This document shows, piece by piece, positions 1,361-63,504 of a DNA stretch of 64,000 nucleotides (position 1 is the first letter of the stretch; each line of letters opens with the position of its first letter). Origin of the DNA: Octopus vulgaris (taxonomy: Eukaryota); contig OX597820.1 in assembly GCA_951406725.2 (NCBI GenBank), positions 104,594,001-104,658,000 on the forward strand, in the 5' to 3' direction. The position numbers and the translations under genes are program-made. The notes under the pieces are model-generated. The model was not told the DNA's origin. It ran no database searches and worked only from the letters and a program-made list of their open reading frames with translations.

Positions 1361-4210
1361 CGGACGGACGGATGGGCGGATGGATGGATTAGTCACACAG
1401 GGCTGCACACAGACGGGACAGATTACAAAGTAGAGCTTTTCTTTTTTTGGAGGAAAAAAAAAAGGTGGGGTAGGTTTTTGATTAAAAGGGAAAGGAAAAA
1501 AGGGGAAAAAGAAAAAAAAACGATCAATAGGGATCGTGTATCAGAGTGTCATGATGTACGGTGTAAAGGGGGAAGCAGATAAGGTTTATCCGTGGGAAGA
1601 AAAGCCTACGGAAAAGGCCACGGTAACCTCGGTCAATATTGTTACATGTTACCACATTTGTTTGCAAGTGGGTAACCCTCTGTTTTCAATTTCTGGGTTC
1701 ATAGGATTATGCTCAAGGTGGCTTCGTCATTCATACGTGCCATCCTTACTACATTCACCCATCTTTTTTTAAACATTCGCTACGCAAAACTTGCCTCTCT
1801 ACTCTCACTTTCCTTTTCAAGTGATACTTGAAGAAGTTGATGAAAGATTGTCCGGAGAGGAAAGTGTTTGTCTCCAATCCTTTCAGACGCGTCCACCAGA
1901 TACATTCTTTCGCCATAGCCACAAGGATGATGAAAATAGCTCTTCCTTCCCGTTTGAAGGAAGGAGGCGTGACAATATTGACGATAGACTCGGCTAATAA
2001 ACCGACTCGTCCCACACGTGACAGTAGTTGTTTGACATAAACTCACAGTTCGGAAATTGTTGGACACTGCACGAGTGCGTGCAGAACGGTTTCGTTGCTC
2101 TGACCGCATCTCGGGCAGGTCGGCCCCGTGTTTCTCGAGCCGTGTCTGTAGAGCTTATCCCAAACGGGTAGCGCTTCTCGGTAGCACTGCCAGGCCAGGG
2201 ATCTCTGGAAGTTGTCCATGGGCCCTGGCCCGAAAGTCGTCCCGAACAGGCGGGTCAGGTAGTCCTCGTCGACGTCCAGGTTCGCCCCGAGCTCGTCGTC
2301 GTACCTCCCCTCCACTAATCCCCTATAGAATGCTTGGGTTGTGTTGGAGTCACTCAAGGTCGACCCGGGGCGGCAGAGTTGCTTGGGAGCAACGCGACAC
2401 TCGTGGTGCCATTCGCCCTTCCTCGGCCTCTTTTTGATCCACGACTGCAGTTCGGTCATGGAGACGAGTTGCGAGAAAGCATGCCTCACAAACGGCGACC
2501 ACACCTGTTCACCGTCGTCTACGTAGATCCTGAGATGTCGCAGTCTCAGCGCGTGTCTGCGCATCATCAACAACGGCATGCCCAGTCCTCCTTTTAACGG
2601 GTGTTGGCAGCAAATGGATCGCCTGACCATCGGGACGCATCCTTTCCAGAAGAAGCGAAAGAGAATGCGTTCTAGTTTGGTGATGGTAGGGTCGGGACAA
2701 GGCACGACGGTCAGGCGGTAGTAGATGACGGACGCGATGTACGTGTTCGCCACCTCCGTCCGGCCCATTGTCGGGTGAGAGTGACCACCCTACTCGTTAT
2801 CTCGTTCCAGTTCTCCATTTGGAGGTCCGGACCAAACCAGACCCCGAGCAACTCGACCGGACCGTCGGTCTAGCGTCCCATGATGAGGCGCTGGTGGACG
2901 GCATGGACTTGCTTCTCCAGATACCGAGTCGCAAGCCCACTGACTTTTCCCGTTTGATTTTCGCTCCTGTCACCGCTTCGTAGTTTTTCAGTGTCTCGCC
3001 GACTTGCTCGATGTGCTTGTGGCTAGACACTATGACGGTGACGTCGTCCGCGTATGCAGACACGCTCGTCCCGCATCCCAGTTCTCGCGGGATGCCCCTC
3101 AGAGTTGCCAGCTTCAGCAATAATGGCTCGAGAGTCAATACGTATAGAAGCGACGAGAGGAGGCATCCCTGACGGACCGAACGTGCGATGTCGAAAGGTC
3201 TCAATAGATGTCCATTTACGCGAATTAACGAACGGATGCCTCTGTACAAAGCGGCTATCCAGCCGTGGAAGACGGGACCGAAACCAGCCGCTCTGAGGAC
3301 TGCCTCCAAGTATCGATGGTCTACCCTATCGAAAGCTTTCGATTGATCAGCGCCCCACCCATGCCAGGTTCCTTAACTACCCTGTCTATGATGTAGCGCA
3401 TCAGGTGGAGGTTGTCATGGATGCTCCGGCACGGCGCACGTTTGTGCCTTGTCGACCAGTTTCTCGATGACAAGCGCCAACCTCTTGGCTAACACCTTGG
3501 TCAAAATTTTCAAGTCTGCATTAAGCAGAGTGATGGGCCTAAAGTTATCTATTACATTCCCCTTGTTTGGATCTTTTTTCACCAGTGTTACGGCTCCTTG
3601 GCTCACAAAACCATGAATGCTCCCGTTTTGCTGCCAGTTGCAGTACACCGCTGCCAAGACGTCTCCAAACAAGTCTGGCATACAACAGTAAAGCTCGTAG
3701 GGTAGACCATCCAGACCCGGCGATTTGTTCCACGATCATTCTGCCATCACATCCTGCACTTCCGCCGCCATGATGGCAACTTCGCAGCGCCCTGCCTCTC
3801 TTGTCGAGAGCCGTGGTAGGCTGTGTAGGTAGGCACTGAAGTCCACCCTACGTTCTTGCCCGCCACTCGTCCCGAACAGTCGGGCAAAAGCTGTTGAAAG
3901 GCCTCACACATTTTACTTGGCTCGATCAATTCGCGCCCCTGTTTATCTACCAGAGACCGAATGGTGGCTTTGTTGCCCTGTTGCACCTCTGCCACCCGGG
4001 CCTCTCTCGCGGCTCCAACACCTTCGTTCCTTAGAGCACGCATCCTAGCTCTGACAACACACCCTTCGTGTTTGGCGTTGAAGTGTTGGTCGAGGGTCAG
4101 CCTCGCCGCCAAAACGTCGGGTGCGATGCCGCTTCTAATTGCCTCTCCTAGCTTCTTAACTAGCTCACCCTCTACTCTATTTCTATCTATGGCTAGTGCT
4201 TTGCTGTACT
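1361..4210 (-). mobile_element. Tx1-like (L1 group) non-LTR retrotransposon, copy A, 5'-truncated, with (CCAT/CCGT)n tail
   Basis: Minus-strand ORF pieces carry RT motifs (NFRPITLLNADLKIL, SVRQGCLLS, AYADD) and C-terminal CPRCGQSNETVLHALVQC; 3' UTR is similar to copy B; ends in a GGAT/GGAC repeat at 1361-1389. Confidence 0.9.
1755..4210 (-). pseudogene. Frameshifted ORF2 remnant (RT plus C-terminal CCHC zinc finger) of Tx1-like copy A
   Basis: ORFs 3747-4112, 3415-3681, 2797-3309, 2043-2768 and 1755-2015 are colinear with ORF2 of copy B. Confidence 0.9.
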
Positions 4211-4248
4211 AGATAGATAGATAGATAGAGAGATGGATGGATGGATGG
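4210..4248. repeat. (GATA)n-(GGAT)n microsatellite between the two Tx1-like copies
   Basis: tagatagatagatagatagagagatggatggatggatgg. Confidence 0.95.
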
Positions 4249-4558
4249 CTTTTTATTGTGGCCACACAGGGCTAAACACAGAAAAAATGGACGAAATACA
4301 ATGTAGAGTTTTTCTTTTCGAGGTGGGACAAACAAGGAAAAAACGTTCAATCAATAGGGATCTGTGGGTTATTTGGTGTATAAAAAGCAATATATATATA
4401 ACGTTCCCCCAAAAAGAGAGCGGGGGGGGGGATCGCTATTGTTCACAGTTTAGGTGTAGCCTTGGAAAGAAAAAGCCTACAAAAAAGACCAAGGTCACCT
4501 CAGACAGTTCGAAATGTACACAAGAGTAAGTCACCTTACCTCTCGTTGTCTCTTTTGG

Positions 4559-7500
4559 TTACACATTTACGCTTAAAATGGTGTCGTCTTTCATACAGAC
4601 CATTTTTGCCACATTTACGCACTTTTTATTGAAACATTCGTTCGACAAAGCCTTCCTCTCTATTCTCATCCTCCTTTTCAAGTGGTACTTGAAAAAGTTG
4701 ACGAGAGACTGACCAGAGAGGAAAGTGTTTGTTTGTAGCCCTTTCAAACGCGTCCACCACACACATTCTTTCGCCATAGACATCAGCGTAACGAAAACCG
4801 TTTTCCCTTCCCATTTAAAGGAAGGTGGTGGAACAATATTCACGACAGACTCGGCCGATAAGCGGGCCCGTCCTACACGCGACAACAGCTGTTCGACGAA
4901 GGTCCACAGCTCTGAAATATCTGAACACTGCACGAGTGCGTGCAGAACGGTTTCGTCGTTCTGACCGCATCTCGGGCAGGTCGGTCCGCTAGTGGTTTTC
5001 GAACCGTGCCTGTAGCTCTTCTCTCGAACAGGTAGTGCGTCTCGATAGCATTGCCAAGCCAGGGATTTCTGGAAGTTATCCATAGGCCCCGGCCCGAACG
5101 TCGTCCTGAGAAGGCGGGTTAGGAATTTCTCGTCGACGCCCAGGTTTTCCTCGAGTGTGTCGTCGGACCTCCCCTCCACTAGTCCTCTGTAGAACGCTTT
5201 AGTCGTTTGTAAGTTGCACAAGTTTGATCCCGAACGGCAGAGTTGCTGTAGTGCTTGGCGACACTCTCGGTGCCAATCGCCCAGTTTCGGTCTCTTCTTG
5301 ATCCACGTTTGCAGTTCGGTCAGTGAGACGAGCTGCGGGAAGGCGTGCCTCACAAACGGCGCCCACACCTGTTCACCGTCGTCGATGAAGTTCCAGAGAT
5401 GTCGCAGCCTCAGCGCATGCCTGCGCATTATCAACAACGGCATGCCCAGTCCTCCATTTAACGGATGTTGACAGCAAATGGACCGCCTCACCATCGGAAC
5501 GCCACCCTTCCACAGAAAGCGGAAGAGTATGCGTTCCAGTTTGGTGATGGTAGCATCGGAACAAGGCACGACGGTCAGGCGGTAATCGATGACGGATGCG
5601 ATGTACGCGTTCGCCACCTCCGCCCGACCTTTTAGAGACAGCTTTCTCTCGGCCCATGTTTGGCTGAGAGCGACCACTCGTGATCTCGTCCCAGTTCTTA
5701 TCCATTTGGAGGTCCGGACTGAAGCAGACCCCGAGCAATTTAACCGGTCCGTCCATCCAGCGTCCCACTACTGAGTCGCAGTTGGACGGTATGGGCTTGC
5801 TTCTCCAGGTGCCGAGTAGCAAACCCACTGACTTTTCCGGGTTAATTTTCGCTCCCGTCACCGTTTCGTATTCTTTTAGTGTCTATCATCTGGATGTGTT
5901 TTTCGCTCGACACTATGACGGTGACATCGTCTGCATATGCCGACACGCTCGTCCCGCAACCCAGTTCCCGTGGGATGCCCCTCAGTGTCGCCAGCTTCCG
6001 CAGTAGCGGCTCGAGAGTCAATACATACAGAAGCGCCGACAGGGGACATCCCTGACGGACCGAACGCGTGATGTCAAACGGTTTCGACAGGTGACCGTTC
6101 ACCCGAATTACCGATCAGATGCCGCTATACAAGTCAGCGATCCAACCGCGGAAGACGGGACCGAAGCCAGCCGCCCTGAGGACAGCCGCCAAGTACCGAT
6201 GGTCGACCCTATCGAAGGCTTTAGACTGATCCTAATTCATCAGCGCCCCACCCATGCCAGGATCCTTAACTACCCTGTCCACGATGTAGCGCATCAGATG
6301 GAGGTTGTCATGTATGGTTCTGCCCGGCACGGCGCATGTTTGCGCTCTGTCGACCAGTTTACCAATGACAAGCGCCAAACTCTCGGCTATTACTTTGGCC
6401 AAAATTTTCAAATCTGCGTTGAGCAGAGTGATGGGCCTGAAATTATCTATAAAATACCCCTTGTTTGGGTCTTTCTTCAGCAACGTCACTGCACTTCGGC
6501 TCACGAAACCGGGGATTCTCCTGTTTTGCTGCCAGTTGCAGTAGACTGATGCCAAGAGGTCGCCAAACAAGTCTGGCATTTGACAATACAGCTCGTAGGG
6601 TAGACCATCCAATCCAGGCGACTTATCCCGCGCGCAGCCCGCCATCGCATCCCGCACGTCAGCGGCTGTGATGGGACTTTCACAACACTCCGCTTCTCCT
6701 GCCGAGAGCCGCGGCAGGTCGGTCAGGTAGGCACTGAAATCCATCCCGCGTTCTGACCCACCACTCGCACCAAACAGTCGAGCAAAGTGCTGTTGAAAGG
6801 CCTCACACATCCTTTCGGGTTCGAATAAACTGCATCCCTGTTGATCTATTAGAGACCGAATGATGGCTCTGTTGCCACGTTGCGCCTCCGCTACCCGGGC
6901 CTCTCGCGCAGTTTCGATCCCTTCGTTCCTTAAGGCACGCATTTTAGCTCTGATGACGCAACCTTCGTGCTTGGCGTTGAGGTGTTGGTCGAGGGCCATC
7001 CTCGCAGCCAGCACGTTGGTTGCGCTGCCAGTGGTAAGTGCCTCTTCTAGTTTCTTAACCAAGTCTCCCTCTACTCTATTTCGATCTATCGCTAATTCCT
7101 TGCTAAACCTAATTGATTCCGATTTTACTGCCATTTTCAGGGCGAACCACCAGCGGTTGTTAACGACGGCGCCCGCCAGCGCCCTCTTAATTAACTCGCT
7201 AATCCGGTTCCTGTAAACCTGTCGCGCTAAGAGCGACGTGTTTAGTTTCCAGTAACCGGGACCCTGTCTATGTGTCTTATCTAAGTCGAGCGTACACGTC
7301 ACAAATTTGTGATCTGTGTAGCTGACTATTTTAAATTGTGGGCATCCTACACTATCCCTATCCGCTGTCCTGCATAGAATTTTATCTAGATAAGATCTCG
7401 ACGATCCGATGCGGTTTGTCCAAGTCCACGTTGGCACGTTCGGATGGTCGAGTCGGAACCTGTCAGACAAATGGAAACGTCTGAGTAGGTCTTTGAGGCA

Positions 7501-7975
7501 CTTACACCCCCTTCTATTCCTATCCATTCCCACATAATCTAGATGCGTGTCCAAGCTAGCGTTCCAATCCCCTACTAACAGTAAAGGTCTAGACGTACCC
7601 AGGAAAAGCTCTAGACGTCTGAAGAAATCCGTCCGACCCGTTAAGGACGGTGCATAAACTGCCATCAGACGGAATGCACACCCATTTCTGCCATCACGTC
7701 CAAGACAACCAGCCTAGGAATATTGTTCTTACTTTTACATTTAGACTCCTTCGAAAAATCACCGCGGTACCTCCACCACCCATGTTCGGCAGACAGGGAG
7801 AAAAATAAATGTCGAATTGATCGCCAAACATGGACGCGAGGGCCCGCGGCTTGCTGAGTCTGGTTTCACTGATAGCTACTATATCCACGTTCAGTGACTT
7901 GATGTCGTTTAGAAGGTAACCTTGCTTCCAAGCCGACGCCAAGCCATGCGCATTCACACAACCTAATTTAAGCAT
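4559..7975 (-). pseudogene. ORF2 of Tx1-like copy B: APE endonuclease, reverse transcriptase, zinc finger; several frameshifts
   Basis: MLKLGCVNAHGL..ISETR, VYAP, GDWN, YLD, YTDH (APE); GYWKLN; SPGLDGLPYE; QGCPLS, AYADD; GGLGMP; CPRC..ETVLHALVQC. Confidence 0.93.
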
Positions 7976-8049
7976 AATTGACGTTTACGAAATTTGTGTT
8001 TCAGACACTACATTGGAAGAGACAAGAGGCAAGAGGGAAGGTCACTTAC

Positions 8050-9864
8050 TCATTTCGAAAGTTTCAGTTTTTTCTTCTTTTGTAGTGTCTTTGAGGAGGT
8101 GTTTGAATAGTTTTTTGGATAGGTATCTTTGAAACCCCCTACCGCATTTGGAAATATGGTTTTCAGTGTATGGTGTTGTGTTTGTATTATGTGTACAATT
8201 CTTATGTGTGTCGGTGGTGTTGTGCGTGGATGATTATTTACTTTAAAGTCATCTTCACAGATGTTTGTGTTAGATGCAATGCATTCCATTAGTTTTTTAT
8301 TGTCCGTGTCTATTGCTGTTAGATGTGTGTGTGGTTTTGCGGTATCGTTGATGGTTTGATTGTCTAAGGGGGGGGGGCTGTCAGGAGTTAAATATCTCCC
8401 TGCTTTACTTGCTTGTTTGGTGGGCTTTTTTTATCTTTTCCTTTTACCCCCTGTGGCTTTTTGCCATTCCGTCGAACTTTCGTCGTTGGCATTTGCGTTA
8501 ATATGTATGTTTGTAGAAAGTGTTGTTATTTGTGCGGTGTTTGTGTTGTTGTGGTGTTAGGGGTAGAATTTGTCTTCTCGTCACTGTTATCTGTTTTCTT
8601 AGTTGTCGTCCTTGGTGCTGGTGTTGGTCTGTTTTTGATGTTGGTTGTGGTTTTGCTTCTTTATTTGGTTGCGACGTCAACGGTAATTGTGTTGGTGCTG
8701 TTTCTTTTCTTGGTGATGTTGTTGGGGTTTGTTTGCTAGTTTGTTGTTGTTCGTGGCGTTGTTCCATATTTCTATATAATTCTTGTATCAGTTGTGGGTT
8801 TGGTGGTGTTGGTAGCAGAGGTTGTTTTCATTTGTTTTCTGATTTGTTTTTTCTGTCCCAGAACGCACTTTGCGATTAAGTGGTCTGGGCTGCCACAGCT
8901 GTAACATCGTGGTTTTTTACCTTCCTCTACCACATACAGGCTTTGGCCATTTTCCAAATATATAATGTTTGGTAAATTCTCGATAGAAGACCCATCGATT
9001 TCCTACTCCAATTATCATTTTTAACAACGGCGATTTCTAATATGTTGTCCATTTGGGTGGGATTTCGGGCGGGACATTTTTTATTCTAATTTTACTCACT
9101 CTTTGTCCCATGTAATATGGGACCATAACAAGTTCTTCATTTTGCAATGTCTCCGTAGAGTGAGCTTTTGCCACTTCCTGGTTATGGAAGCGGACCACCA
9201 CTGTATTAAACTGGGGGCCCCAGTTTATATATTCTTTTGTTTTCATTATGTTTTTTGCACATTTTTCCACGTTTGTTTTTGTTATTTGTTCGTTTTTTTT
9301 CGTGTTTTTCCTAATAATTCTATATAGAATTGTTCGCTTTTCTACATCTTCTCTAATATGTTGTGGTGTGTGTAGAATCAGGTTTTGTCCTGATGTTGTG
9401 AAGAGTGATCGTGTCTCCATCAACTCTTCATTTGTGAAATATACAATTTCTCTTTTTTGACGCGGGGTGTCAGCGAAATTCACAGTTCTCTTCTGGCAGT
9501 TGTTGTCCTTGTATGTTTTTGTTGTTGTTGAATCAGAATTATTGTCGGTTGTTGTAGTGTTAGTAGCTTTTTCAGGGACTGTTACTTTTGTCTTGTTAAT
9601 ATTATCTTCACCATTAATAGGTGAGATAATCAAATCTTGTGAAACATCATGGTTATTTATATTTACTTCATTTTTGTTGTTGTTGTTGTTGTTGTTAACG
9701 GTTGTTGTGTCAGTGGTAGTTTTGGTGTTGGTGGTGGTGGTGGTGTTGATTACAGTTTTATCATTCTTTGTAGCAGCGTCTTTGTTGACTGTCTTTCCCA
9801 AAGCAGGAAAATCCTCCTTAGAAAAAATCGCAGAATATTGCTCTACGATAAGATTTCTCGACAT
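8050..9864 (-). pseudogene. ORF1 (gag-like) of Tx1-like copy B, frameshifted
   Basis: ORF 9037-9864 has a Thr/Asn-rich N-terminus and an RRM-like region ending IRIKNVPPEI; CYSCGSPDHLIAKC (CX2CX4HX4C) at about 8870-8910; low-complexity C-terminus lies directly upstream of ORF2. Confidence 0.82.
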
Positions 9865-10267
9865 TTTTTATCGAGAAATAAAAATCAATTGATGAAAATG
9901 CCCCTAGGGGCGAATTCTACATTTAAAAAACACCCAAACGAAATTTGGGCGTTTGAAAAGTTGAAAACTCCGAAAATATAAAATGTAAACAAATGGATGC
10001 AACAGAGAGAGAGAGAACAGCGTCTATGCGTTATGAGGAACGCTTCGGCGACATTATGTAAAAACAAACTATAGAAGCAAAAAATTTTATATATAATCAA
10101 AGCTGAAACTGCCCCTAGGGGCAAAATCCCCTCCGGAAAACACACCCAGACGAAAGCTGGGTGTCTTACACACTCCGTGCGCGAAAATTTGAAACGAAAC
10201 TTTTGCAAAAACACAATAAAAAGGGCGATTGACTTACGAGCCGATCCAAAATGAACACTATCGATCG

Positions 10268-12356: not shown

Positions 12357-13255
12357 AAAGTAAAAAAAAATATACAAACTGGGACAAGAACGTGAAACAT
12401 TTAGAAGACGACACAAAAAACACGGACGGGACATTCGAAGCCTTCAATCTTCATTCAAGAACCGGATCATCTTCGCAATTTCGGCTGATTAATCTTGAGA
12501 TTGCTCCGACCTGGGCAGCCCCAAAGGAAAATCTAAGCCAAGCGCATTAGATTCCTTGGAAGAAAGCTTCGAATGTATACAAAACAAGGACGGAAAACGG
12601 ACGATGTTACACGAATAAAAATACAAAAATACGTAAAAACAATAATGATAATAATAACAACAAAACCAGGACGTCAAGGACAAGCGTCTTTTCGACAGGA
12701 CGAGTAAAGTTTTGAGCTGGCGTTAGAAGAGTGCCTTAAGGCCACAGAGAGACAAACAAGTGTGTCTTGCCACAATGACTGCTGGACGCGAAAGAACAGC
12801 AGTTGTTGGTTGGTCACGTGAGGGAAAGAAAAAGGAAAAAGAGGGACAGAGGAAGAGAGAAAGAAGGGGAACAAGGAACGAGAGGCAGAGAAATGTAGGA
12901 GAGGGGGGACAGATGAAGAGAGAAAGAAAGAAGGGGAACAAGGAACAAGGGAGGAGGAGAAGAGAGAGGGAGAAAGAGACAGATCAAGTGGAGTGCAAAG
13001 TGTGAAGGCAGAGAAATGTAGGAGAGGGGGGAGAGAGACAGTGTTGTAGAGTCGTACCATGTGTTAAAGAATATATACTTACGTATAGGGTCAAAAAGGA
13101 GTACGTAGCCGCTTATGTACATATGTAAAAGTAAAAAAATATACAAACTGGGACAAGAACGTGAAACATTTAGAAGACGACACAAAAAACACGGACGGGA
13201 CATTCGAAGCCTTCAATCTTCAGCCAAGAACCGGATCATCTTCGCAATTTCGGCT
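12352..13255 (-). mobile_element. Non-coding PLE/retrozyme-like element with about 135-bp terminal direct repeats (769-bp period), flanked by (TA)n
   Basis: 12352-12486 is repeated at about 13121-13255; contains the rearranged hammerhead-like motif. Confidence 0.65.
12448..12520 (-). ncRNA. Rearranged hammerhead-like motif (first core C mutated to A)
   Basis: Sense: GGCUG-N11-GCAAUC-UCAAGA-uuaau-CAGCC-GAAAUUGC-N14-UCUUGA-AUGAAGA; the truncated repeat at about 13217-13255 has intact CUGAAGA. Confidence 0.55.
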
Positions 13256-17671: not shown

Positions 17672-17923
17672 TAAAAATAAAAAATGGGACAAGAACCAAA
17701 ACATCCGGAGAAAAATGGGACAGCAAAACATCCGGAGAAAAATGGGACAGCAAAACATCCAGATAGACGATACAAAGAAAACATGGACGGTTCATTCAAA
17801 ATTTTCTTTCCTCAGTCGAGTACCAGAATATCTTCGCAATTTCGGCTAATTATACTCGAGATTGCTAAATCTGGCCAGCCCCAAGGAAAAACTAAGCTAA
17901 GAGCATTAGATTCCTGGGAAGAA

Positions 17924-20536: not shown

Positions 20537-21584
20537 TTATGAAATAATATCTGCCCTAATTTCGTTATTACAAAGAGAACAACTATTACTCCCTATAGTA
20601 TATGATTTAGTCCTACAAATAATATCCCGATTTAATTTATTTTTAATAGATCTAAATTTAAGGTTCCAAATATATTTATTGAAACCTGTTGAGTTTATAA
20701 GATTTTTATTCCTAAAAGAATACATTTGTTGGGAAATTCTATTTTTAATTTTATTCGAAGTAGACCCTATATAAATAGTATTTAAATTATGATGATTCAA
20801 ATTCTTATCATCTATTATAGTTACCCTACATCTATAGACTACATTATCTAAATTACAATAATTTTTCAATTTACATGTAGACTTATCCCTGCATGTACAA
20901 GAAATCAACTCTTGGTCTTTATTATTATAATTAGAATTAATATTTAATCTATCTTTATAAAATTTCTTTAATTTAAAAATATTACATGAAGAAATTATAT
21001 TACCAACATTATTAGTTGTAGAATAACCTACTCCCAAATTATCTTTAGAAAAATGTTATAATATTTTTTATTATCTCTAATAAATATTTCAATTATATGT
21101 AAAATCTCTTTTATAAGATTTGTTTTAACCTGAGTCCCAAAAGGAATAATTAACCAAATTTTATTTTTATTTATATCTTTTACATTATGATTATAATTAA
21201 TATTATTATTATTATTATTACTATCATTATAATTATTATTATAACTATCATTATTATTACTATAATTATTTACAATATTATTAAATTTATTACCTTCTTT
21301 AACTGAATTAAATTTAATCTTATTTTTATTTATACTTTTATTTTTATTATTATTACCATACTTTTTATTTTTTATTCTAATATTAAATTTAAGATTTCCA
21401 TCATCAAAATTCCTATTATTATTAAGGCGATAAGTTCCTAAATAAGATTTATCATAACACAAACAATTAGGTTTATCATTATAAAAATCATTTAAATAAT
21501 TATCTTTTAAATTATAATTACGTTTACAAATATTAAAGAATTTAATATTATTATTGTATCCAGCCTCATTCAGGGCTTTAGTAT
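20537..21584 (-). pseudogene. PLE linker plus GIY-YIG endonuclease remnant
   Basis: YTKALNEAGY; KIWLIIPFGTQVKTN; CTCRDKSTCKLKNYC; VVYRC..IYIGST..KNR; KYIWNLK; CSLCNNE. Confidence 0.82.
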
Positions 21585-21605
21585 GTTTGTATGTATGTGT
21601 ATAAA

Positions 21606-21950
21606 CGAGTGGAACTCAAAACTTATCCGCACTTTTGCCATAACATATCCTTATTTGTGGCCACGTGATCGGAGTTTGAGCCTGATCGCACCATTTTTTT
21701 CCTGGTTTTACAGTGTAAGCATGGTTGCTCCGCTAGCAATGTGCACCAAGGAAGAACAAAGAGCAGTGATCCGATTTCTCTGGTTGGAAGGTGTGTCAGA
21801 TGCTGAAATTCATCGGAGACTTTTAGCACAATACGGGAACAGTGCCCTTCCGCGTAGAAGTGTGTATGAGTGGATTGAGAAGTTTAAAAGTGGCCGAACA
21901 AGCGTGACGCACGAAGAGGGACCAGGACGCCCGTCAATCTCCACCAATCG
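21606..21950 (+). mobile_element. mariner 5' fragment (HTH domain)
   Basis: EQRAVIRFLWLEGVSDAEIHRRL..VYEWIEKFKSGRTSV..GPGRP. Confidence 0.88.
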
Positions 21951-61788: not shown

Positions 61789-62311
61789 ATATATATATAA
61801 TGTAATACGTCATTTCAATTACCAAAACAGCAGGATTTTATTCAAGAATGATTTGTTTGGAATATCTGGCAGATCCAGTAAGTTTATGTAAGGGCTCTAT
61901 TTTTAAAACGCTCCTCTAAGTACCTACAAGGTTGTGTCGTTGTTGCTAGACGTTTGGTGCTGTTTCTGACTTGTTTGTGACGCTTATGGTTGAGGTGCGA
62001 CTGGGGATGATGGTGGTAGTGGTGTTGGCAGTGTTCACAATGGCACTGGTGTTTTGTTTGTAAAATTTACGGTAGGTGTTACGAACATTTCAAGAATTTT
62101 ACAAGATATTTCAAAATAGATTAAGATCAGATAGGCGTTTGTAAATAGCATTCATATTACGTTTCCTTTATATATTTTTCGAAAAAAAAACTATTTTACG
62201 CATTTTATATTTTTATCTTTTTGTTTTTGTTTTTAATATCAGAGATTCAGAATGGGCAAGAGCAATTTTATGAAATAATTTTTTAAATTAATATATTTCT
62301 TAAGCAGACTA

Positions 62312-62312
<1 letters not shown>

Positions 62313-62399
<87 letters not shown>

Positions 62400-62426
62400 G
62401 TGTGTATATATATGTGTATATATACA

Positions 62427-62479
<53 letters not shown>

Positions 62480-62574
62480 CTATATATCTATATATATATG
62501 TATATATATATATATATATATATCTATATATATATCTATATATATATATCTATATATATATGTATATATATATG

Positions 62575-62606
<32 letters not shown>

Positions 62607-62700
62607 TATATATGTATATATATGTGTATATATATGTATGTATATATATATATATATATATGTATTATATATATGTGTATATATATATATATATATATAA
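62313..62700. repeat. Compound (TA)n/(TG)n microsatellite
   Basis: Direct inspection. Confidence 0.95.
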
Positions 62701-62913
62701 TAAATTAATAAATAAAACATATGCATATATACATACATATATGTACGTACCTACCTCTACATGTATATATACACGCATATATAGGTACAGGACACCAAAC
62801 AACGTCGAACACAAGGAGAAACGAAAACATAAACACAAAATCAAGGAACTGGACATTTTTCTTAAACAACAAAAAATAGAGTACAGGACAAATACCACAA
62901 GGAAAATTCCCCT

Positions 62914-62991
62914 TCTTCAGTCGCCATGGTTTCATCTATTCTGCGTTTCGAAGGTGAAGGCGATACGCATCTTCAATAGAAACGTTCCTTC
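62914..62991 (-). ncRNA. Rearranged hammerhead-like motif from a different repeat family, core intact
   Basis: Sense: GAAGG-N17-UGCGUA-UCGCC-uuca-CCUUC-GAAACGCA-N16-GGCGA-CUGAAGA. Confidence 0.65.
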
Positions 62992-63504
62992 CCGCGAAAA
63001 GCAAATTAAATAAAATTTGAGATCTTTTTGCGCAGGGGTAACAAAAACAGGACAGAAACGACAGTACAAAATATAAACAGTAAAAGACAGGACAAGGAAA
63101 ATAACAAGACAAGAAGGGCTGTTAAGCCGAACGAGAAAAAGTATTACGAACGCTATTTTTGAGAACGGCGAAGGAGCAACAGAAAATGCCGTCCACACTT
63201 TAAGGAAGTCAGGCCAGAAAGACAGTAGCAGAGCTCTCATCGCGGGTCAACGACGGGAGGGAGGTGGAGGAGAAAGAGAAAGGGAGAGAAAAAAAGGGAA
63301 TGGTTGTGAGGAAACCAGAAAGAATGAAGAATGATATATATATATTTGTTGTGCAAGATTTTTATGTGAAATCGTGTGTTGAAACAGATATTGTTGTATT
63401 TCGGAATGGTCATTTTGCCAGTTTAGCCAAATACACGTACTATATATTTGGTGTTACTTTGCTTCAGTGTTATTTATTTTTTACATTAATCTTAATCTTA
63501 TTTC

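Follow-up and report, generated by a model that had tools for sequence, protein, structure and literature searches.

The minus strand of positions 62991-62914 of the window, as we call the whole 64,000-nt stretch of Octopus vulgaris DNA analyzed here, carries a full hammerhead core in the block order S-G-C together with four helices. It lies in a dispersed non-coding repeat, which we name family A, and we have very little doubt that this hammerhead-like fold is real and conserved. From the sequence we predict that the 5' strand of stem II is supplied from upstream of the core, with the chain open between A9 and G10.1, and that the RNA likely cuts itself after GUA, between 62964 and 62963; we give this reading a probability of about 0.7. 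The S-G-C order has already been published (Eckert et al. 2023, PMC10085705); the new feature is the position of the stem II strand upstream.

Read 5' to 3' on the minus strand, the fold begins with GAAGG (62987..62991), the putative 5' strand of stem II, whose first G is G10.1 and which pairs with 62954-62950, and continues with GUUUC (62979..62983), the 5' strand of an extension helix linking stems I and II, which pairs with 62933-62929. Block S (62959..62969) comprises the stem III 5' strand UGCG (62969-62966), the UA of U16.1-A17 (62965-62964), after which the cut is predicted, and the stem I 5' strand UCGCC (62963-62959). Block G (62942..62954) holds the stem II 3' strand CCUUC (62954-62950), GAAA (62949-62946) and the stem III 3' strand CGCA (62945-62942). 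After it come AUGAAAC (62929..62935), the GAAAC part of which (62933-62929) is the 3' strand of the extension helix, the stem I 3' strand GGCGA (62925-62921) and the core box CUGAAGA (62920-62914), with no stem II strand directly after it. The hammerhead core boxes CUGANGA, GAAA and UH are all present, and stems I, II and III flank the core with the closing pair G10.1-C11.1 when the upstream strand is taken as stem II. With its S-G-C order, the fold lacks the nested, circularly permuted junction of types I, II and III. All 20 evaluated pairs (five per helix, the core U-A pair being counted with stem III) are Watson-Crick, which bears out the minus-strand letters and helices of the initial annotation. 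A UAUU/AAUA pairing that it also proposed exists in the window copy and is private to it, most copies having UAUC/AGUA.

The alignments of Eckert et al. (PMC10085705) place the stem II strand of type SGC after CUGANGA, usually with one bulged U between. Family A could likewise be an ordinary type SGC, with stem II formed by the downstream GGGG after a bulged A and with GAAGG as a competing strand or a relic, which we consider unlikely. The segment concerned (AGGGG, 62900..62913, minus strand) would need a 1-nt bulge, the same as in the published SGC RNAs, and two G.U pairs. In family A this pairing is well kept, with 98.8% of cells paired in 21 copies; when a bulge of 0-2 nt is allowed and the best of 3 start positions is taken, 77 of 84 copies offer a downstream strand that pairs over 4 bp or more. 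However, as an isolated duplex in the window copy the downstream helix has only four pairs, two of them G.U, and 0.0 kcal/mol, against five Watson-Crick pairs and -4.6 kcal/mol for the upstream one, and its GGGG is predicted to fold locally in a small hairpin. Moreover, the downstream strand is found in 1 of 37 copies of family B, 2 of 23 of family N (the Naiad-type family described below) and none of 14 of family D, whereas an upstream strand of at least 4 bp, taken as the best of 35 start positions, is present in 70/84 copies of A, 30/37 of B, 20/23 of N and 4/14 of D. The base that follows CUGANGA cannot pair with the base before GAAA, the run being 0-1 in 92/92 descriptor matches. Families B and N exclude the downstream option, and family A alone does not; the initial annotation had posed this choice between GAAGG and GGGG, which family A does not decide and in which the other families favor the upstream strand.

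The simplest reading of the fold would be a circular permutation of type SGC, its last two strands having been moved to the 5' end, which opens the chain between A9 and G10.1. A break at this point is plausible because the same junction holds an extra nucleotide in Penelope-like hammerheads, which keep a nucleotide between 9 and 10.1 as well as the G10.1-C11.1 pair (PMC4209133).

The fold recurs in sequences unrelated to family A. A copy of family B, matched in the window by the descriptor (17809..17885, minus strand), has the same fold with unrelated sequence; the best match between the 62.9-kb and 17.8-kb copies is 12 nt (BLAST, E 0.09). Family B has the same build as family A, with a monomer of 740-780 nt, and no sequence in common with it. 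No helix has the same sequence in the different families, yet all of them keep the core boxes and G10.1-C11.1. The earlier proposal that a rearranged hammerhead-like fold is common to unrelated repeat lineages is therefore supported, and covariation inside family A adds to it. The GG before the upstream strand, listed as kept in the initial annotation, is not a general feature, the Naiad-type family having UU at this place.

Within family A, 21 copies were hand-chosen from the set of 84 to span the subfamilies; 97.6% of cells pair in these copies, against 38-48% in slid controls. Stem III reads UGCG/CGCA, UACG/CGUA, CAUG/CGUG or CGUG/CGCG according to subfamily, and position 17 alternates between A and C among the subfamilies. 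Double changes affect three pairs, two of them in stem III and the third in the extension helix, where 97.3% of cells are paired and the change, from G-C to A-U, occurs in 2 of the 21 copies. The upstream strand of stem II pairs in 100% of cells, and neither stem I nor stem II of family A shows a double change in these copies. The count of doubly changed pairs does not exceed that of a shuffle control (54/500), and the covarying changes of family A go back to a small number of subfamily events and are not independent. One stem I pair of family B, which sits at a CpG site, covaries among 31 copies, with G-C in 14, A-U in 10, G.U in 3 and no pairing in 4.

A three-block scan of the window returned the S-G-C order at 62965/62949/62920 and 17861/17843/17815, along with one further, weaker match of different block order. 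The full four-helix descriptor, which adds the upstream stem II strand and the extension helix as fourth and fifth strands, matches the window only at 62920 and 17815. In dinucleotide shuffles it gave 1 match in 40 and then 6 matches in 300, no shuffle having two, and the chance matches scored 19-25 pairs, comparable to the real ones (20 and 24). A single match on its own therefore has a p of only about 0.02, and it is the recurrence of the fold and its covariation, rather than the window copy by itself, that carry the case. An unbiased descriptor scan of 400 kb gave one match, of family A, and none in 10 shuffles, a difference in the expected direction and of low power.

These numbers bear on whether the pairing arose by chance in one founder sequence and was then multiplied by transposition. 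Matches of equal score do occur in about 2% of shuffled windows, an Rfam scan of the window returned no hammerhead at E<=1 but only microsatellite noise, and nested MFE folding gives nothing out of the ordinary (z 0.22), as a pseudoknotted fold would lead one to expect. Such an origin is nevertheless hard to reconcile with a strand order and a 3'-end location that recur in three unrelated families and in Naiads of five phyla, with the double changes within families, and with the empty shuffles of 400 kb. It is largely refuted by the cross-family recurrence, and we regard it as very improbable.

Further repeats depart from this build to varying degrees. In family B2, a partial tandem with a tail-like junction at 12380..13255 (minus strand) consists of a whole monomer with a broken core box and an upstream partial copy, the latter having an intact core box and no cleavage block; its stem I and extension helix differ from those of family B and still mostly pair. 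Family D (locus L149, 230-400; loci L236-L250) is another repeat with the same core order, with 1351 first-look candidates, 262-nt tandem units in L245 and a 3' end not tied to (TA)n. It fits the fold poorly, as the count of 4/14 indicates; its upstream stem II strand has only 3-5 bp and stands beside a G-run of variable length, and its helices resemble those of the box-jellyfish Naiad. A kink-turn between stem III and the extension helix was considered as a defining feature and dropped, being present in 15 of 21 copies of B and 10 of 10 of N, but in 1 of 57 of A.

Other elements of the window lie close to the family B copy. About 450 nt upstream of it, at 18342-18255 on the minus strand, a hammerhead-like motif of conventional order (CUGAUGA...GAAAC...GUC) stands at the 3' end of an AT-rich element, and a similar motif occurs just downstream of the family B copy in locus L037. 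Decayed frames at 20537-21615 (minus strand) resemble, by eye, the C-terminal GIY-YIG endonuclease of Penelope/Poseidon-type elements and are probably the body of the element that ends near 18.2 kb; this remnant has no meaningful Pfam match. Its GIY-YIG-like label, like the Naiad-type label of the RT discussed below, comes from by-eye comparison with the published Naiad consensus sequences and with motifs typical of these proteins. Elsewhere in the window, several frames at 2043-9867 (minus strand) are the decayed remains of a non-LTR retrotransposon that encodes endonuclease and RT domains and seems to be present twice.

Family A itself has a monomer of about 860 nt, whose longest ORF has 84 codons. 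A 22-base core pattern has 1047 exact matches in the 2.8-Gb genome, and its reversed control has none. The window copy (62691..63334, minus strand) is truncated at the 5' end and covers positions 219 to ~862 of the monomer, limits that follow from its flanks and from BLAST comparison with other copies and with the locus L014 monomer. TA-rich microsatellites bound it on both sides, and the one at the element's 3' end (62300..62700) is the likely insertion target; the TA-rich 3' end had been placed within 100-200 nt and lies slightly beyond, ~215 nt from CUGAAGA and 263 from the cut. Copies share one common 3' end and vary in 5' truncation. The extent of the monomer follows from the longest ones, in which the 3' end runs head to tail into a fixed start. 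Arrays are mostly partial tandems, inverted truncated pieces adjoin several copies, and six loci run 37-45 nt into the next unit before a microsatellite begins, as tail-like ends. Two 9-kb stretches (L206 and L207), 373 kb apart on C1, are 99.6% identical and represent either a segmental duplication or an assembly duplicate.

Insertion at (TA)n and truncation at the 5' end, together with partial tandems, inverted pieces and short tails, give the repeat a Penelope-like anatomy. Partial tandems are among the Penelope-like traits named by Craig et al. (PMC8557442), as are truncated copies in inverted orientation and a tail of 30-40 bp; Frangieh et al. (PMC11167929) relate this tail to a pair of internal sites at which reverse transcription starts. 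The (TA)n preference of family A is not diagnostic of the Naiad clade, since this target is common to Naiad and Hydra clade elements (PMC8557442). No autonomous family A element was detected: the longest upstream open frame contains YIDD, YVDD or YADD in 0/84 copies, the monomer has no ORF with an N-terminal GIY-YIG and an RT, and its BLAST search against 20 Naiad-type loci gave no match.

Among 54 published Naiad consensus sequences, 10, with hosts ranging from ctenophore to octopus, end in the same fold according to a by-eye reading of the regions around each listed CUGANGA match, which misses matches split by a line end. These are Bfor (stem I of only 2 bp), Amil, Anas, Aacu (one mismatch), Obim and Ovul, together with others named by file position only, namely, a Clytia family, probably Movir-2, a rotifer-group family and a crustacean family. 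By this reading, most Naiads have no such motif, bivalve Naiads have no 3' match, and the motif of the Esco Naiad looks degenerate. Two spider and several ostracod Naiads have the S-G-C order with other helices, in variants where stem II is a local hairpin or where the strand after CUGANGA pairs before stem I. Nematode Naiads show hammerheads of the usual order with a very long stem II; none of these spider, ostracod and nematode motifs is reported as a hammerhead. Craig et al. (PMC8557442) describe Naiads as lacking canonical hammerheads and give only the annotations "HHR_core" and "HHR_half_core," with half cores 35-50 nt apart in eight Naiads.

Octopus-type Naiad elements occur in the same genome as family A. 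The core of the Ovul type (family N) has 273 exact matches, against none for the control. Among 15 loci identified through their ORF-end motif, 7 carry this core 670-985 nt beyond the ORF stop motif; locus L174 carries both RT homology and a Naiad-type core. The Naiad-type RT fragment has no Pfam match and owes its label to a by-eye match to the published consensus. From the shared fold and target, the partner enzyme of family A may be of the Naiad type.

In the mechanism that we propose, stem III and the extension helix would form one bent arm, the far end of which ties the outer ends of stems I and II and would do the job of a loop I-loop II contact. A Naiad-type RT/endonuclease would copy the family A repeat in trans into (TA)n. 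During read-through of a tandem junction, the upstream stem II strand would be made, then the bent arm and lastly CUGAAGA, and transcripts of tandem units would be cut after GUA once this last part is made. The cut would likely set the RNA 5' end or free a monomer.

Of 30 family A copies selected through their 3' part, 27 begin >11 nt upstream of the cut, whereas a linear monomer running from cut to cut would give insertions of at most ~270 nt. An enrichment of 5' insertion ends at the cut was looked for and rejected, with 2 of 30 lying within 10 nt. Upstream partial copies start at unit 468-734. Since most insertions cross the cut site, a linear cut-to-cut monomer should not be the template, which leaves either RNA that has stayed uncut or a circle closed by re-ligation; the circle is a tentative choice, which we hold somewhat doubtful. 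For a Poseidon element in vitro the template is uncut RNA (PMC11167929). In three of the 30 copies (L117, L118 and L138) the first base falls at unit 567-568, within the upstream strands of stem II and the extension helix. L117 has a short inverted piece at this point, and reverse transcription may have stalled at the fold. A dip in RNA contig depth at 62961-62979, seen in 3 of 4 presumed-RNA runs, was rejected as a sign of cleavage because subfamilies A2-A4 drop under the 85% threshold at 62942-62998, so that the dip is confounded by subfamily divergence.

That family A copies cross the cut site intact would also suit a fold that is real, hammerhead-derived and unable to cut on its own, either because it needs the protein of the element or because it acts as a signal for binding or reverse transcription. 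The hammerhead of the Poseidon element cuts only with protein and is not needed for insertion in vitro (PMC11167929), metazoan Penelope-like hammerheads have low activity (PMC4209133), and in the searchable literature, outside which subscription journals lie, we found no paper testing a backbone break at A9/G10.1 and hence no precedent for it. On the other hand, the catalytic boxes, U16.1-A15.1, a non-G at position 17 and G10.1-C11.1 are kept across unrelated families while the helices change, the pattern expected from selection on catalysis. Lack of autonomous cutting is an improbable explanation, if slightly less so than the use of the downstream GGGG, and self-cleavage with the upstream stem II strand remains our preferred reading.

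Among known RNAs, type SGC (HRIMA-1 and its variants), found in metatranscriptomes and shown to cleave (PMC10085705), is the closest. It shares with family A the S-G-C order, the short stem I-II linker, the intact core boxes and an additional helix that connects stems I and II at their far ends. In type SGC, however, CUGANGA comes before the stem II 5' strand and one of the interaction strands, whereas in family A these two strands lie ahead of block S and join stem III. That study assumes that CUGANGA and its adjacent stem strands (block C) are inseparable and reports that, one GCS candidate aside, none of its RNAs was found in genomes of known organisms; family A, by contrast, resides in an animal genome at high copy number, with cleavage predicted only. 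Like Naiads (PMC8557442), family A has (TA)n insertion, partial tandems, inverted truncated copies and tails of 30-40 bp; unlike them, it lacks an ORF, and its resemblance to the Naiad-type 3' end is one of fold only, not of sequence. Non-LTR retrozymes (PMC4209133; 10.64898/2026.07.22.740005) resemble it as non-coding tandem units with one hammerhead each and Penelope-like machinery. Their hammerheads and those of pLTR elements, however, are of type I, often minimal and dimeric, while family A has a full stem III, a different wiring and one hammerhead-like motif per unit that is not of type I. The preprint on animal retrozymes (10.64898/2026.07.22.740005), in the parts available, deals with type I only, and PMC10085705 is merely cited by a 2026 paper. 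We found neither this wiring nor a hammerhead in Naiads described in the searchable literature, outside which subscription journals and bioRxiv supplements lie.

Taken as a whole, we lean, by a small margin, toward a natural hammerhead whose catalytic strand is open at A9/G10.1, contrary to the published assumption on block C, and that is the missing ribozyme of many Naiads (in at least five phyla) and of their satellites, with monomers that are circularized and reverse-transcribed. If it cleaves, the best-studied small ribozyme would gain a fourth point at which its chain can open, and the fold would be a hammerhead in animal genomes that is not circularly permuted, of which none is reported in searchable papers. 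A ribozyme with a core box as its last part would also be useful for engineering clean RNA ends. Cleavage would explain why descriptor searches called Naiads hammerhead-less, would imply that many such motifs have been missed in invertebrate genomes, and would offer a direct test of the role of hammerheads in Penelope-like transposition.
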